64,000 bases of DNA from Chryseobacterium sp. (GCF_022869225.1 NZ_JALIHL010000001.1:2285721-2349720), one strand, 5' to 3'; shown: positions 6,950-16,256, numbered from the stretch's first letter. Program-made: numbers and translations. The notes: generated from the sequence alone by a model not told the origin.

Positions 6950-8551
6950 ATGAAGAAACTTTATCTCGGTGCATATACATTATGCACAGTTTTAGGTGTG
7001 TCTGCTCAGGAAGTGGTTTGGCAAAAGGACATCAAATCCTCTACTCAGGATTTCCTAAGTCAGGTGACCACCACTATCGATCAGCAGTATCTCATCACAG
7101 GAAGCTCTATTCGGAGCGACAAACAGCAAACTTTAGGTAATAAACAGAACAACGGCTACGATTTCCATGTGGTAAAACTCAACCAACAAGGAGAAGAAGC
7201 TTGGGAAAAGTATTTCTCAGGGTACAATCATGATTATTTGTCGGCAATAGTAAGCACTCAGGACGGAGGATTTCTATTAGGAGGAACATCCTATTCCGGA
7301 AAAGGATTGGATAAAAAAGAAGATTCTAAAGGCGGATCTGATATTTGGCTGATCAGAATCAATGAATTTGGCGATGAGCTCTGGCAGAAGACTTTAGGAA
7401 ACTCCTATGATGAAGAAGCTAAAGCAGTGATTCAAAGTACAGACCTAGGCTTTTTTGTAGCTGGAAATGTACAGAACTCTTCTAAAGGCTATGGTTCTAA
7501 AGATGTCTGGATCATCAGACTGGATAAAGACGGAAAAGAATTGTCCCAACTGGTATTAGGCGGAGAAGGTTTAGATGACGTAGAGAAAATGATTCCAACG
7601 AAAGATGGCGGAGCATTATTAGGGATTTATTCCAGGAGTTCCGAGGTTCGTGTTTCAGGATCCGGGAATAATCCTCGTGAAACTTCTTCAACTTCTGCAT
7701 CCAGCACTGCAAAATCTACAGAAAATTTCGGTGAAGGTGATTATTGGATCATTAAACTGGATAAAAACGGGAAAGTAGAATGGGAAAAGAACTATGGTGG
7801 TAAAGCAGATGATCATATCAGAACTTTGGCTTTAATCGCAAATGGCTACATCATTGGTGGAGAATCCAGATCCGAAAGATCAGGAAACAAAACAGTCTGT
7901 ACCCAAGAAGGAACAGACCTTTGGTTAATTGCACTTAATGAAAGAGGTGATGAACAGTGGCAAAAATCTTACAATTTCAAAAATCGGGATATTTTAATGG
8001 GAATGAGCGTTATTCATTCCGCAGATGACAAAACTTCCAAAGGAATTTTATTGGGGGGTTACACCCAAGCCGAAGGAAGAATAGAAAAAGATGATGAAAC
8101 CTTCTGGATGTTGTATTTAGATGGCAACGGAAATGAACAATGGCGAAAACATGTAGCAGGAGAATCCAGGCAGAAAGAAGAAAGACTTTCAGATCTGAAG
8201 TTAAACAGGGATGGTTCAATTATTCTAGCCGGAACCAGTGCTAAAGAACTTGGAAAAGAGAACTGGAAGATTGTAAAGCTGGGTGATAAACAGGTGAATG
8301 ACCTGATTGCAAAATATGATATCAAGATTTATCCGAATCCTGTATCAGATTATGCTTATGTAGAAATCGGTTTTGACTTTAAAGAGGCTGATATTATGCT
8401 GTATGATATGAGCGGAAGACAGCTTCAGAACTTTAAAACCAAGAACAGAGTGACGAAGGTAAACACTCAAGCTTTGGTACAGGGAGCTTATCTGGTAACT
8501 GTAAAAACCAATACAAATAAAACTGCAAATTCTAAAATTATTAAAAAGTAA
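6950..8551 (+). CDS. T9SS type A sorting domain protein with beta-propeller-like repeats
   Basis: Signal peptide (..SAQ); repeated D(F/I/Y)W(L/I)(I/V)(K/R)LD..G...W.K..GG units; CTD IKIYPNPV..YDMSGR..GAYLVTV..KIIK. Confidence 0.9.
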   Translation: MKKLYLGAYTLCTVLGVSAQEVVWQKDIKSSTQDFLSQVTTTIDQQYLITGSSIRSDKQQTLGNKQNNGYDFHVVKLNQQGEEAWEKYFSGYNHDYLSAIVSTQDGGFLLGGTSYSGKGLDKKEDSKGGSDIWLIRINEFGDELWQKTLGNSYDEEAKAVIQSTDLGFFVAGNVQNSSKGYGSKDVWIIRLDKDGKELSQLVLGGEGLDDVEKMIPTKDGGALLGIYSRSSEVRVSGSGNNPRETSSTSASSTAKSTENFGEGDYWIIKLDKNGKVEWEKNYGGKADDHIRTLALIANGYIIGGESRSERSGNKTVCTQEGTDLWLIALNERGDEQWQKSYNFKNRDILMGMSVIHSADDKTSKGILLGGYTQAEGRIEKDDETFWMLYLDGNGNEQWRKHVAGESRQKEERLSDLKLNRDGSIILAGTSAKELGKENWKIVKLGDKQVNDLIAKYDIKIYPNPVSDYAYVEIGFDFKEADIMLYDMSGRQLQNFKTKNRVTKVNTQALVQGAYLVTVKTNTNKTANSKIIKK

Positions 8552-11500
8552 TGAAGAAGGAAAAGATCAATCTGGCAAGTCTGCGAAATAAATTGAGCGC
8601 TTATCTATTTATTCCAGTATTGTGTTTATCAAATTCTTATAAAGGGCAAGACCAATTTAATACTAATAGTCAGATTACTCAATCAGTTTTGGACGCTTCA
8701 AGTTTTTCAACAGGAAACACAGGAAGTGTGGACATTTCAATCCCAATTACAAACCTTTCCATCGAAAATTTTAGCTTAGATGTTAAGTTGAAACATAACT
8801 CTACTGGAGTAAAAGTAAATAGAGATGCTGACCTTTTCGGAGTAAATTGGGATATTAATGCTGTAGGACTTATTACAAGAGAAATTAAGGGGCTGCCTGA
8901 TGAGCTACCTCAAATGGTTATTTTAGAAAGTAATTTAGGAGGATGTATTAAACTCAGTCAGATGGAGAATGTAGGCTATTTTTATAATAGAGACAGAGTC
9001 AAAAACTTTCTTCCTGCCTATGAGGCTGGATATCCCAATATTCCATTATCGATATCAGCTGATCTTACTATGAATGGGTTATCTTCTCATTTTTTTAAAT
9101 CACCTAGATTCTTTACCCCTCCCGCTGACGATCCTGGCCTTCTTAAAGACTATGAACCTGATATTTTTACAGTTATAATTCCAGGTTATAAACCCTTCAA
9201 GTTTTTCTTTGATCTTGATAAGAAAATTGTTATCACTTCAGATGATAATTATAAAATCTCTCATATAGAGCAGGAGGGGGAGATTGCTTCATTTGAAGTT
9301 ATAGATAAAAATGGGACAAAATTCAAATTCAGTAATAAAGAAAAACGTAAATTAAGTAATTTAAAGACTGAATTTGAAAGTGCTGGAATTTTAGAAAATA
9401 AAGACATTTCAAATTCTGTTGAAACGCCTCCTGTTTTAAATAGTTTATGTGCTGGATATAATCAGGAACATGTTAATAATTTTAAAAAGCACTATACCAA
9501 ATCCTGGTATTTGGATTTAATTACAAATACTAAATCAGAAACTATAGGATTCAATTATAAAAATTTAGAACTATATTCTGTTAGCCCAGCTTATGGAAAT
9601 AAACCTTACACCTCTGATTATATAATTTACCCTAATAATGATGATTATGGTTATATAATTTGGCAGAGTGGTATACTAGGTGGGTACTATCCTGTATCTT
9701 AAAGTGCTTTAGTGACAACAACTCCGATTCTTAAGGCTGTAGGGACTAAAGATAAAACCATCTATTTGAACGAGGGAAATTTAAGGGAAGATATATTCAA
9801 TAATGCATATACTCAATATAAAGAAATTAAAAGTATAGATATTTGGTTTCATAATACAGGAAACACATTTGTGGGCCTTGATTACTATCTAACGTATACT
9901 CCAAACTCCATCCCTGCTAATTTTAGAAAAATACAGACCTTCGAATTTGATTATTTGTATTCATTTTCAAAAGATGGTAGTAGTAGTCCTAAAGTTGCCT
10001 ACGCCAATAAAAGATTATTCTTGAATTCTATTACTCAAAAGGCAGGAGGAGTAGGTATTATTAAATATTATCTGGCATATAATGGAGATATAAATGACTT
10101 GCCAAATAAACAGAGTACAAAAAGAGATTTATGGAACTATTATAAAGAAAATCCTGAATTAAATTTCTTTCACAAGCTATATTATTATCCTGAAGATGGA
10201 AGGGATAATATTGACTTAGGTCCTATCTCTCTATACCCAAGAAAAATTTTAATGGTCCAGAGGTTTCTATTCTGAATTATTATTCAAATTATCCTTTGAA
10301 GCCAGTTTATTTTGGAGATAAGACACCTGATTTTAATAATACAAGTATCGGTTCTCTGAAGAGTATTTTGACAAGTATGGGAGGGCTAACCAACTTTTAT
10401 TACGAACCCAATTACATTCAGTATTATGCAGATAAAAGACCTTCGGGGGGAATCCGTATTAAATCAATTGAAAATATAGAGTCAGGTAAAAAAAATATTA
10501 CTGATTTTTACTACGGTCAGAATGATAATGGTATTGGGCATGTTTATATGAACAATGGTATTAACAGACTGAATTATAATCCTGATAACACCACAAGATT
10601 TGGAGTAAACTCTCCTAGTTTTAGTGACTTTATTAAGCTTAACTTTTTAGATGAAGTATCTTCTATCACTTATTATGATGAGATAAAGAAGGTAAATAGA
10701 GATGAAAATGGAAATTCCAAAGGATATACCATATCAAAGTATAGCTTATTTAAGGATAATAATGCTCATACAGGCTTTCAGCTAGGAAATGTATTTTACA
10801 AATCAAATATTTTTTCAAGTTACAGTTTGATATATAGTCATTCTAAAAATCAGAATATGGTTTATTACAACCATAATACGAAAGATTATTATCCTTTCAA
10901 TGAAAAAGAAGATTTTTCTGAAATCAACGGATACTTATTGAATGAGAAGGTGTATGACAGTAATAATACACTCCTAAAAGAAAATAATTACACCTACGAT
11001 CTTAAAGTACAGGAATATAAGTTTTTAAAGGATGATAACAGCGGATGGCAGCCGGCAGGATCTATGTATAAATTAAGAAAGTATGATTATTTATTACAGA
11101 ATACTTTAAATAGAGATTATTTTAATAATAATGCTGTAGTAACTAATACTACAAATACATATAATTCATTCAATCAACTGAAAAAAATATCAACTGTCCT
11201 TCCTGATACGGATGTTTTTTCCAAAGAACTGAAATATTGCTACGAAACAGATAATTCATTTACAACATTGAACAGGCTTTCAGAAATATGTGAGGAAAAG
11301 GAAACTAAAAATAATAGGTCTACGATAATTAAATACCTTTATAAAAACCTAAGTGTTCCGAAGTTATTTATTGAATCGGGAGTTATGGGGAATTTTAATG
11401 TTTATTATGGCACTATTTTAGAAAATTTGCCTTATGTAACGCAGAAATCTATTAACGGTACTACTTTTAACGATGGTGTTAAGATTAATAAATTAGGAGA

Positions 11501-15958: not shown

Positions 15959-16256
15959 AAATAAGACATATATCTTTTTAAAAATTATAATCTACTCAAT
16001 TGGATTTGTAAGTTTAATATTCTTGTCAAATATTTGGATTGGTACAGAAGAAAACTGGGATGAAATCGTTAAAGATGAATTTATTCCTGCTCTTATTACA
16101 AGGACTATTTTTTTAATAGTTATAGGATTATTGTTTTTGGGGCTATCTTTTGGATTAGACTATATCTATAAAAAAAAGGGCAACTTTATAAGAGAATTAT
16201 ATTTTTTAGTGGTATTTTCTCTTGTTTTAAATTTAATAATGATGTTGGTTCTGTGA
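15942..16256 (+). CDS. Putative Rhs immunity protein, small 3-TM membrane protein
   Basis: Overlaps the Rhs stop by 17 nt; three hydrophobic segments. Confidence 0.65.
   Translation: MEQINKNKTYIFLKIIIYSIGFVSLIFLSNIWIGTEENWDEIVKDEFIPALITRTIFLIVIGLLFLGLSFGLDYIYKKKGNFIRELYFLVVFSLVLNLIMMLVL

Follow-up and report, generated by a model that had tools for sequence, protein, structure and literature searches.

The analysed stretch of Chryseobacterium sp. DNA (64,000 nucleotides, hereafter the window) probably encodes an Rhs capsule made of two Sec-exported proteins, after the pattern of the BC part of Tc toxins, with an accessory propeller, in a copy that is probably decaying. The operon runs from a T9SS-tagged, seven-bladed propeller through a TcB-like protein and a DUF6443-Rhs protein with a lipase-like tip to a candidate immunity protein with three transmembrane segments. 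The system is probably an undescribed variant of the known polymorphic-toxin/Tc BC kind and of antibacterial type.

Organisation of the locus and lesions in its middle gene

All features lie on the plus strand, and the tight co-directional coupling described in an earlier note on this DNA is borne out at the nucleotide level. The TAA stop of the first gene, gene A (6950..8551), at 8549-8551 shares one base with the ATG of the middle gene at 8551 (TAATG), and a gap of 11 nt separates the end of the middle gene at 12500 from the start of the Rhs gene at 12512. The three proteins have signal-peptide-like N-termini, each ending in A or G followed by Q. The intergenic region in front of gene A (613 nt, 27% G+C) contains, 40 nt 5' of the start codon, a match to TAnnTTTG (TACTTTTG, 6903..6910), the motif marking Bacteroidota promoters; as a motif match only, it is promoter-like.

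Gene A encodes 533 residues, with a signal peptide at residues 1-20 (ending VSA, followed by QE), seven SBBP-like beta-propeller blades at about residues 21-455, which we counted by eye from the repeated motif DGG..LLGG..S...G..D.W.IKLD..G...W.K, and a type A T9SS sorting domain (CTD) at residues 460-533 (nt 8327-8548; PF18962 3.7e-11, TIGR04183 5e-12). Of the operon products it alone combines a signal peptide with a Por_Secre_tail, as T9SS cargo does. Pfam and NCBIfam searches found no T9SS sorting domain in the middle fragments (in the middle tail even at E<=10) or in the Rhs protein, in agreement with the earlier note. The genome also encodes the SprA translocon.

The middle gene (8551..12500), which the earlier note took for one intact YD protein, is cut by an in-frame TAA and a frameshift into three ORFs: 8551-9702 (383 aa), 9712-10275 (187 aa, in the frame of the first and following the TAA at 9700-9702) and 10296-12500 (734 aa, in a different frame). 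In the alignment, two intact orthologues carry 15 extra bases at the TAA site, and DNA alignment together with protein comparisons places the change of frame relative to intact orthologues at a short A-run (10242..10246). Two orthologues, with identities of 93% and 79%, are each encoded by a single gene of 1321 aa. The G112 orthologue (1321 aa) is 88, 75 and 78% identical to the three fragments, and the Logan contig L029 carries an intact middle gene of 1321 aa whose identity to the third fragment is 93%, together with a gene for a Rhs protein 95% identical to ours. Two lesions in the TcB-like gene suggest that the module is probably inactive or decaying here, and, judged from sequence, the balance lies on the side of a non-functional copy. 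The Rhs gene and the immunity candidate have remained intact.

The middle protein ends in a C-terminal appendage that paralogues in the genome do not have, made up of a DUF5977 domain (residues 547-611 of the third fragment, 11934..12128) and an unassigned tail of ~120 aa (12129-12497). DUF5977 is repeated 12 times in one Flavobacteriaceae homologue, and fibrillar adhesins use it as one of their stalk domains (PMC8286594).

The predicted shell, the toxin tip and the immunity candidate

The fold of the middle protein was modelled on the family member P0004, which is 57% identical to the G112 orthologue, and not on the broken window gene. The predicted model (pLDDT 75.5, pTM 0.80) has as its top PDB matches in Foldseek TcdB2-TccC3, YenB and TcdB1 (E 2e-20 to 1e-16, TMq 0.33-0.40), versus TMq 0.08-0.14 for T6SS Rhs proteins, teneurins and TcC. 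Its N-terminal part resembles the SpvB N-domain 6P0X (TMt 0.45), and the model thus appears to combine an SpvB-like N-domain with a YD shell, as TcB proteins do. By sequence, the match of the family profile to the YenB N-terminus among PDB entries reaches only E=0.04. Family members have 930-1320 aa versus 1450-1490 aa in TcB, and the P0004 model, judged from DSSP and lengths rather than from coordinates, shows no run of short four-stranded sheets large enough to be the internal six-bladed propeller of TcB. In Tc toxins that propeller closes and gates the shell and docks on TcA; at this locus, and in the 77 related ones that were examined, no TcA-sized gene was found.

The Rhs protein (12512..15958, 1148 aa) has a signal peptide ending TYA, followed by QT, a DUF6443 domain at residues 29-155 (nt 12596-12976), a YD shell, and a Rhs core at residues 824-907 (nt 14981-15232) that ends in IDPDG (TIGR03696, 1.4e-16) and matches YenC2 and TccC2 by sequence at 3e-7. 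Its predicted model is confident over shell residues 23-830 and of low confidence in the tip. Compared with TcC chains it gives TMt 0.59-0.62 (rmsd 8-9 Å), versus TMq 0.10-0.12 with TcB chains and 0.12-0.27 with T6SS Rhs proteins. Asp872, Asp880 and the D904-P-x-G907 site are conserved across 50 Rhs proteins. The protein thus has the YD half-shell, the Rhs core with an aspartyl autoprotease site and the hypervariable toxin of TcC, with cleavage predicted only.

The toxin tip (residues 908-1148, 15233..15955) carries a nucleophile-elbow-like THSEGS motif, read directly from the translation, and is by its sequence a candidate alpha/beta-hydrolase (lipase/esterase); Pfam and PDB searches returned no match for it. 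Compared with the 95% identical orthologue, residues 908-1140 differ once (S/P at 932) and the last eight residues show two changes. The immunity candidate (15942..16256, 104 aa, three hydrophobic helices) overlaps the Rhs stop by 17 nt at its start, and an ORF of 104-105 aa like it follows orthologous Rhs genes. Paralogous Rhs proteins are 40-64% identical over the shell and diverge after residue 908 or so, a small ORF lies 3' of every paralogous tip, and arrays of core-tip fragments, i.e. orphan tip/immunity cassettes, lie downstream of five paralogous loci. By sequence, the elements of a polymorphic toxin are all present: core, variable tip, downstream candidate immunity gene and orphan cassettes.

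The idea of a two-chain cocoon, put forward in the earlier note, is well supported by the reciprocal fold matches (middle protein with TcB, Rhs protein with TcC), by natural fusions and by a gene order that is constant across the Chryseobacterium loci. Although these matches score moderately (TMq 0.35-0.50) and come from predicted models, we consider it very probable that the middle and Rhs chains form one shell. Gene order, domains, predicted-fold similarity, fusions, distribution and lesions are what we have observed, and from them we infer how assembly, cleavage and export could proceed and what the target could be. The TcB-like protein, with its SpvB-like N-domain and YD shell and without the TcB propeller, would be exported to the periplasm by its signal peptide, and the TcC-like DUF6443-Rhs protein by its own. 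There the two chains would close into a single shell round the C-terminal toxin, the Rhs aspartyl autoprotease would free the toxin by cutting behind the conserved DPxG site, and the downstream three-transmembrane protein would guard the producer cell. In Chryseobacterium and part of the Flavobacteriaceae a gene for a near-constant seven-bladed propeller with a type A sorting domain always stands 5' of the pair and is probably translationally coupled to it.

Distribution of the module and its route of export

The genome carries nine DUF6443-Rhs loci. An intact propeller gene stands in front in seven and a truncated one in one; two loci without partner genes are a deletion remnant and a solitary gene. 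The solitary gene has neither middle gene nor propeller, and a partner in cis may therefore not be needed by the Rhs protein in every case. Gene A is 78-80% identical to the six other complete copies in the same genome and 81-89% identical to the best 80 matching loci of other Chryseobacterium genomes. In a synteny survey of Chryseobacterium loci, the propeller gene is followed by the middle gene in 77/77 loci and the Rhs gene comes next in all 67 loci with room for it. The middle family occurs in 59/59 other DUF6443-positive genomes, usually adjoining the DUF6443 gene. In other Bacteroidota the middle family, DUF6443, RHS repeats and toxin are fused in one ORF; these ORFs (2061 and 2099 aa) have signal peptides. 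The propeller is near-constant in Chryseobacterium and found in some Flavobacteriaceae, and most lineages with the middle/Rhs pair are without one.

The earlier note's statement that T6SS genes are absent stands for the window, where no TssD, VgrG-like, PAAR-like or ClpV-like match was found, but not for the genome, which has a T6SSiii locus at 3.3456-3.3614 Mb, about 1 Mb away, and encodes TssD (five full copies and one partial), two TssO, TssR, a ClpB-type (ClpV-like) ATPase and five VgrG-like proteins. Most studied Gram-negative Rhs effectors are T6SS cargo, and TssD occurs in all 5 Chryseobacterium genomes tested. It would nevertheless be very surprising if the Rhs proteins were cargo of this T6SSiii. 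T6SS cargo is loaded in the cytoplasm, and T6SS Rhs effectors have no signal peptide and a PAAR, VgrG or chaperone (EagR/DUF1795) partner, whereas here the Rhs, middle and propeller proteins each start with a signal peptide, as do all paralogues and the fused forms. Pfam and NCBIfam scans detected no PAAR or VgrG domain in the operon proteins, none of the nine Rhs loci has a TssD, VgrG or PAAR gene close by (the shortest distance to a VgrG-like gene is ~85 kb), and the predicted Rhs fold is nearer to TcC than to T6SS Rhs proteins. The signal peptides on all chains, and the lack of a PF17642 (TssD) match in 54/61 DUF6443-positive genomes, argue against T6SS export, and export is very probably independent of that system. 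The resemblance to Tc toxins invites another thought, namely that the module acts on eukaryotes (nematodes, amoebae or insects) instead of on bacteria, or that outer-membrane vesicles or lysis release it in place of a dedicated secretion system. The nearest folds of the predicted models are indeed BC subunits of insecticidal Tc toxins, the pair is found in some genomes without T9SS or T6SS markers, and the system has no identified outer-membrane step. We regard this as quite improbable: the locus has no TcA-like gene, the fused relatives bear a colicin-type 'Cytotoxic' nuclease tip, and the membrane immunity candidate after each tip, with the orphan cassettes after paralogous loci, is a hallmark of self-protecting polymorphic toxins.

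The gene for the propeller poses a different question. One proposal is that the capsule, once in the periplasm, attaches to the propeller and that the propeller's CTD carries the complex through SprA to the surface or medium. The one-base overlap of gene A with the middle gene and the invariant adjacency in Chryseobacterium (77/77) fit such an arrangement, as do its recurrence in Flavobacteriaceae, where a CTD propeller 34-42% identical occupies the same position, and an unrelated 396-aa CTD protein directly 5' of the middle gene in one other family. A polymorphic C-terminus would be unable to carry a C-terminal sorting domain itself, and the TANFOR toxins, for which T9SS export was proposed from enrichment of CTD genes in their neighbourhood (PMC7073777), offer a possible analogy. 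SprA is found in 58/59 genomes with the family, a figure that may not represent an enrichment over the phylum background; G514 has the family but no SprA, as does the SprA-negative control B. thetaiotaomicron, in which DUF6443 is also present. Further against this proposal, 7/8 loci examined outside Chryseobacterium and Flavobacteriaceae-type lineages have no CTD gene upstream of the pair, the fused single-chain forms gave no CTD match, and the propeller hardly co-varies with either shell protein (0.11 and 0.15, versus r=0.35, Mantel p=0.001, between middle and Rhs proteins). We know of no case in which a CTD in trans exports a capsule this large (more than 2,000 residues). Passage of the capsule itself across the outer membrane via the T9SS, and with it the proposal that it travels on the propeller, is therefore doubtful. 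At the other extreme, the propeller could be a T9SS surface protein in its own right, physically and functionally unconnected with the toxin, a mere conserved neighbour whose gene serves as a constant 5' homology arm for exchange of middle/Rhs cassettes. At the nucleotide level, paralogous loci align over the propeller gene (75-94%), similarity ends where that gene ends, the body of the middle gene cannot be aligned, and similarity returns in its last 600-900 nt and in the Rhs shell. Mean distances (0.13 for the propeller, 0.71 for the middle protein and 0.47 for Rhs) and a propeller identity that does not follow the type of middle gene agree with this. Yet the propeller-to-middle spacing is 0-16 nt in 76/77 Chryseobacterium loci, which with the stop/start overlap suggests one transcript and coupled translation; the trio has moved jointly into another family (G378, propeller 76% identical, middle and Rhs genes attached); and propeller homologues above 70% identity were seen, fragments aside, only in front of middle genes. 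A neighbour without a role is thus improbable, and a functional tie to the toxin system rather likely. As an association of genes the T9SS link is well established; as a route of export it is hypothetical. We take the propeller to be a lineage-specific surface accessory, i.e. a docking, display or target-contact factor, and not part of the shell.

Relation to known toxin systems

The closest relatives of this Sec-exported capsule are the Tc BC complexes TcdB2-TccC3 (4O9X/6H6E), YenB-YenC2 (4IGL/9C4K) and TcdB1-TccC2 (6L7I). Both have a two-protein shell with reciprocal fold matches, an SpvB-like N-domain, conserved aspartates in the Rhs core and a C-terminal toxin that varies, and natural B-C fusions occur in both systems. 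They differ in that the TcB-like chain here is ~320 aa shorter with no internal propeller seen, every chain has a Sec signal peptide, DUF6443 forms a module at the junction, and sequence identity is only 7-14%. The immunity candidate gene and orphan cassettes found here suggest that the system behaves as a polymorphic toxin, unlike Tc BC. T6SS Rhs proteins (RhsA 7Q97, Tre23-Rhs 7PQ5, Tse5 8CP6, RhsP 8H8B) share the YD shell, the autoprotease motif of the Rhs core, the swappable tip with downstream immunity gene and the displaced orphan tips. They are, however, closed shells of one chain that lack a signal peptide and whose N-termini are PAAR/VgrG-linked, whereas the present system has two chains, signal peptides and no PAAR/VgrG neighbour, and the models compare poorly overall (TMq 0.08-0.27).

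WapA of Bacillus and Streptococcus (PMC12704120) likewise combines signal-peptide export with a YD shell and a polymorphic toxin, and bacterial teneurin-like proteins (PMC13018210, 9IFO) do so too, with a beta-propeller next to the shell and display on the cell surface. Both differ in being single chains with propeller and plug in cis and with a cell-wall or S-layer domain or lipid anchors, and neither study lists such a toxin from Bacteroidota. The single-chain arrangement of FN-plug, NHL propeller and YD shell is not found here; comparisons with 9IFO and teneurins give TMq 0.09-0.26, and the Rhs model matches 9IFO weakly (TMq 0.20).

Among toxins catalogued by trafficking class, the passages of Zhang et al. 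(2012, PMC3482391) on which we draw describe 'TcdB/TcaC' and 'T2SS' classes that include RHS toxins with a signal peptide and an SpvB domain, some from Bacteroidetes, and alpha/beta-hydrolase tips with a GHSxG motif. In these passages the 'TcdB/TcaC' class differs from our system in having an integrin-like propeller within the same chain, and they mention neither a split pair of middle and DUF6443 proteins nor a partner with a T9SS tag nor a middle protein with a hypervariable body. The TANFOR toxins (Jana et al. 2020, PMC7073777) are alike in being Bacteroidota-specific signal-peptide toxins without a CTD in neighbourhoods enriched in T9SS CTD genes. Their delivery domain is unrelated and they have no Rhs shell, and their link to CTD genes is a statistical enrichment, whereas here a fixed, overlapping gene lies upstream.

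We would finally consider the near-constant T9SS-sorted propeller as an adaptor in trans for export and display, which would bind the two-chain capsule after its assembly in the periplasm and lend it the sorting signal that a toxin with an exchangeable C-terminus is unable to have, while the TcB-like body recognises the target. This reading is unlikely on present evidence. If it were true, the T9SS would be a route of interbacterial toxin delivery in Flavobacteriales, and the hypervariable TcB-like body would be the exposed, target-recognising face of the capsule.

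A propeller and a probable two-part shell with its predicted folds

Six co-directional ORFs lie between 6950 and 16256, so tightly packed that internal promoters would not fit. The propeller gene (533 aa, 6950–8551) ends in a TAA that shares one base with the ATG of the middle gene (TAATG). The three ORFs of the middle gene (8551–9702, 9712–10275 and 10296–12500) are followed after a gap of 11 nt by the 1148-aa Rhs ORF (12512–15958) and by a 104-aa ORF (15942–16256), the immunity candidate, which overlaps the Rhs ORF by 17 nt; all six are on the forward strand. That the three genes are tightly coupled had been claimed in the earlier note, and the 1-nt overlap and the 11-nt gap were both found. 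A TAnnTTTG motif, which we take to be a promoter motif of the Bacteroidota type, matches 40 nt 5' of the first ATG, in an intergenic region of 613 nt with 27% G+C.

In the propeller protein, a signal peptide precedes seven SBBP-like blades, a number obtained by eye, and the chain ends in a C-terminal sorting domain (CTD) of T9SS type A (PF18962, 3.7e-11; TIGR04183, 5.1e-12). No sorting domain was detected in the other proteins, with the tail of the middle protein probed to E<=10, in agreement with the earlier note that the CTD is restricted to the first protein. Its observation of signal-peptide-like N-termini on all three proteins also held, as these N-termini, and those of all paralogues, finish with A or G before a Q, as is usual for signal-peptidase I sites in Bacteroidota. 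The Rhs protein carries DUF6443 at residues 29–155 (7.6e-31), RHS repeats and an Rhs core at 824–907 (TIGR03696, 1.4e-16) that terminates at IDPDG. The 241-aa tip that follows (residues 908–1148) had no match in Pfam, NCBIfam or the PDB and its predicted model is poor; its THSEGS motif makes it a candidate lipase-like toxin. The third ORF of the middle gene encodes one DUF5977 domain and one clear YD repeat. A 2041-aa middle-family protein of a Flavobacteriaceae genome (G458, contig L143, 3116–9241) has 12 tandem DUF5977 domains at its C-terminus, compared with one in the window protein, which suggests that the shell bears a stalk-like appendage whose length varies.

Searching the PDB with the middle protein gave nothing for the single sequence and only E=0.04 for a profile, and a comparison of predicted folds was needed. 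An AlphaFold2 model was made of a 1132-aa middle-family member that is 57% identical to the orthologue in another Chryseobacterium genome (G112), using an 80-sequence alignment (pLDDT 75.5, pTM 0.80). Its best PDB matches are the TcB chains of Tc toxins, namely TcdB2-TccC3, YenB and TcdB1 (E 2e-20 to 1e-16, TMq 0.33–0.40); the N-domain of SpvB gave a TMt of 0.45, and T6SS Rhs proteins, teneurins and TcC chains a TMq of 0.08–0.14. The model of the window Rhs protein is good over residues 23–830 and poor over the core and tip. It scored a TMt of 0.59–0.62 with TcC chains (rmsd 8–9 Å) and a TMq of 0.42–0.50 with the TcC part of TcdB2-TccC3, against 0.12–0.27 with T6SS Rhs proteins and 0.10–0.12 with TcB chains. 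Since the middle model matches best with TcB and the Rhs model best with TcC, the predicted fold match is reciprocal, with moderate scores.

A further line of evidence comes from natural fusions. Matches to the middle family and to DUF6443 share one open frame in a single Bacteroidia family and in a different class of the Bacteroidota. Two fusion ORFs of the other class were verified (2061 aa, contig L140, 2733–8918, reverse strand; 2099 aa, L141, 1128–7427, forward strand), each with a signal peptide, a middle-family region, DUF6443 at about residues 915–1035, RHS repeats and a toxin, which in one of them is a colicin-type Cytotoxic domain (PF09000). No other evidence here speaks as strongly as these fusions for the two Chryseobacterium proteins, middle and Rhs, acting as one physical unit. 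The place of DUF6443 inside the fused ORFs shows it to mark the predicted junction of two shell halves, not an N-terminal export tag. The two-chain cocoon of YD and Rhs proteins proposed earlier is supported by the fusions as well as by the predicted TcB and TcC likenesses.

Unlike TcB, the middle-family chain is ∼320 aa shorter and has no propeller-like block in its predicted secondary structure. We considered whether the separate propeller could be the missing gate of TcB. This is unlikely, since middle proteins are of equal size in lineages without the partner (1018–1301 aa in genomes G150, G166 and G426).

Probable decay and mosaic evolution of the module

The "YD protein" described in the earlier note as one gene at 8551–12500 does not stand as such. 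Its first two ORFs are in the same frame and divided by a TAA at 9700–9702, and the third is in another frame. The G112 orthologue is a single ORF of 1321 aa, 88, 75 and 78% identical to the three pieces, in a locus with the same order of propeller, middle, Rhs and small ORF. A Logan contig (L029) likewise holds an intact 1321-aa middle gene, 93% identical to the third piece, with an Rhs protein 95% identical, whose tip is almost the same, followed by a 104-aa ORF; no other record of the first fragment was found. DNA alignment showed that both orthologues carry 15 more bases at the TAA site and that the frame change falls in a short A-run at 10242–10246. We regard both lesions as probably real, because a homopolymer error does not account for the first and the paralogues (23–44%) are too dissimilar to the gene for mis-polishing. 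That the three ORFs are an inherited split is ruled out, as the 93% and 79% identical orthologues are single genes and a split occurs in only 3–4 of 77 related loci. The middle gene was never read through; what was searched and folded were its pieces, its paralogues or natural homologues that are intact. The window copy of the module is probably inactivated and, with a broken shell gene, is of lesser importance.

G+C is 0.29–0.34 across about 9–18 kb of the window, compared with 0.36–0.44 around it. At the low-G+C end of this island lies a serine recombinase (resolvase) gene (17207–17889, reverse strand) split into ORFs of 86 and 138 aa, which makes three lesions within 9 kb and hints at past mobility of the island. 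Between the immunity candidate and the recombinase gene there is a 90-aa ORF without a family match (16318–16590, forward strand), and terminator-like hairpins are found on the opposite strand at 16269–16287 and 16550–16572. Directly beside the island, adjacent genes for a trypsin-like peptidase (336 aa) and a caspase-domain Peptidase_C14 protein (310 aa) (18046–20062, reverse strand) possibly form a defence or conflict pair.

The window is from a complete 4.88-Mb genome with nine DUF6443-Rhs loci (0.42, 1.24, 1.39, 1.75, 2.29, 3.75, 4.16, 4.54 and 4.69 Mb) and a solitary Rhs gene at 4.64 Mb that has neither propeller nor middle gene. Seven loci are preceded by an intact propeller gene (71–80% identical to that of the window) and an eighth, at 1.24 Mb, by a truncated one; the 1.75 Mb locus is a deletion remnant in which the first 42 propeller codons are fused upstream of the Rhs gene. 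Of the eight modules in which a propeller gene persists, six have stops or frameshifts in the propeller, middle or Rhs gene, and only the copies at 1.39 and 4.54 Mb look fully intact. As long genes elsewhere are intact (a SprA frame of 2364 aa; window ORFs of 735–1050 aa), gene decay seems to be concentrated in the Rhs loci.

Comparison of the paralogues reveals a mosaic. Propellers are 78–98% identical, middle proteins 35–55% over parts, and Rhs proteins 40–64%, with one pair at 95%. Nucleotide similarity spans the propeller from −180 to +1650 relative to its ATG (75–94%), ends with that gene and is absent from the middle gene's body; in the last 600–900 nt of the middle gene it returns, continues through the Rhs shell (78–94%) and is lost again at the tip. 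The body of the middle protein diverges more than the Rhs shell (mean 71% versus 47% different). These gaps in similarity point to two hypervariable cassettes in each module, the body of the middle protein and the tip. The conserved C-terminus of the middle protein moves together with the Rhs N-terminus, as would be expected of an interface, and we infer that the variable body is a candidate specificity surface.

The T9SS-tagged partner and possible routes of export

A synteny survey, suggested for Weeksellaceae and run here on the best 80 propeller loci in public Chryseobacterium genomes, showed a middle-family gene 0–16 nt 3' of the propeller in all 77 loci with downstream sequence (one at +140), and a DUF6443-Rhs gene next in all 67 loci with enough room. 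The shell pair is distributed more widely. Of 401 Bacteroidota genomes sampled, 60 encode DUF6443, and these represent 36 of 179 genera; all 59 other DUF6443-positive genomes also have the middle family, mostly directly upstream, and the middle-family profile matches 18,846 cluster representatives at E<=1e-30.

The propeller may be tied to the middle-Rhs pair as a T9SS-linked partner, acting as an export adaptor, a surface dock or a target contact. Its fixed and overlapping position upstream of the middle gene in Chryseobacterium favours such a tie, as does the transfer of the whole trio into another family (genome G378, propeller 76% identical). In one Flavobacteriaceae genus, three of seven genomes have a CTD propeller 34–42% identical at this place, and an unrelated 396-aa CTD protein occupies it once in a further family. 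The T9SS translocon protein SprA is found in 58 of 59 genomes with the middle/DUF6443 family, a count that may not amount to an enrichment. However, in other lineages no CTD gene lies upstream at seven of the eight loci examined; a Flavobacteriales genome (G514, 2.1 Mb in 70 contigs) matches DUF6443 three times and the middle family six times but gave no SprA_N match; and B. thetaiotaomicron, a control, is DUF6443-positive and SprA-negative. Across 52 complete triplets, co-variation of the propeller is slight both with the middle (r=0.11) and with the Rhs protein (r=0.15), whereas middle and Rhs co-vary with each other (r=0.35, Mantel p=0.001). Weighing this balance, we conclude that the middle-Rhs pair is the core of the system and the propeller a lineage-restricted accessory.

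Export of the Rhs protein by a T6SS was also considered. The claim that T6SS genes are absent holds for the window, where none was detected, but not for the genome. Empty searches with PF05943 (TssC) and PF05638 (Hcp) had suggested a genome without T6SS, a reading overturned by PF17642 (TssD) matches at six places. Negatives with the former two profiles mean nothing in Bacteroidota, since they are blind to the T6SSiii subtype here, PF05943 being negative in 7/7 TssD-positive genomes. A T6SSiii locus lies ∼1.0 Mb downstream of the window (genome 3345601–3362178), with two TssO, a PKD membrane protein, TssR, three TssD, a ClpB-type ATPase and a VgrG-like protein; TssO, TssR and the ATPase were confirmed with Pfam and the VgrG-like protein, one of five encoded in the genome, with NCBIfam. 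A lipase-like effector candidate with a GHSLGG motif is also encoded there. Neither ORF-length patterns nor the surroundings of the VgrG-like genes revealed the sheath and baseplate genes, and two leads were dismissed as T9SS peptidases and a ribosomal-protein/SecY cluster. Although the genome thus carries a T6SSiii locus, export of the Rhs protein by it is unlikely, because the T6SS genes lie outside the window and adjoin none of the Rhs loci, every chain has a signal peptide that is hard to square with cytoplasmic loading, and 54 of 61 DUF6443-positive genomes have no TssD match.

A predicted Sec-exported capsule in a diderm phylum

Rhs/YD capsules are known mainly as T6SS cargo, as BC subunits of Tc toxins that need the TcA injector, or as Gram-positive surface toxins. 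The module is real and conserved, a variant of the Rhs/Tc-BC capsule not previously described, and by its signal peptides and gene neighbours the capsule is predicted to be Sec-exported and, in Flavobacteriales, coupled to a T9SS surface propeller. Our literature search found no paper that mentions DUF6443 and, among the papers, titles and abstracts examined, none joining Rhs toxins to the T9SS or giving this gene arrangement. Zhang et al. 2012 (PMC3482391) had already catalogued RHS toxins of the signal-peptide and SpvB types in Bacteroidetes, along with hydrolase tips that carry GHSxG. T9SS export was proposed for the unrelated TANFOR toxins from CTD-gene enrichment (Jana et al. 2020, PMC7073777), and bacterial teneurin-like proteins are Sec-exported surface YD-shell toxins of other phyla (PMC13018210).

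The two hypervariable cassettes suggest a specificity determinant in addition to the toxin. That a very large Rhs/YD family is predicted to be Sec-exported in a diderm phylum raises the question of how its members cross the outer membrane and enter their targets. The fixed T9SS-tagged partner in Chryseobacterium and Flavobacterium is a concrete handle on the outer-membrane step, and G514, with no SprA_N match, offers a natural setting in which to test export that does not use the T9SS. Culturable strains allow a direct test of the outer-membrane step.
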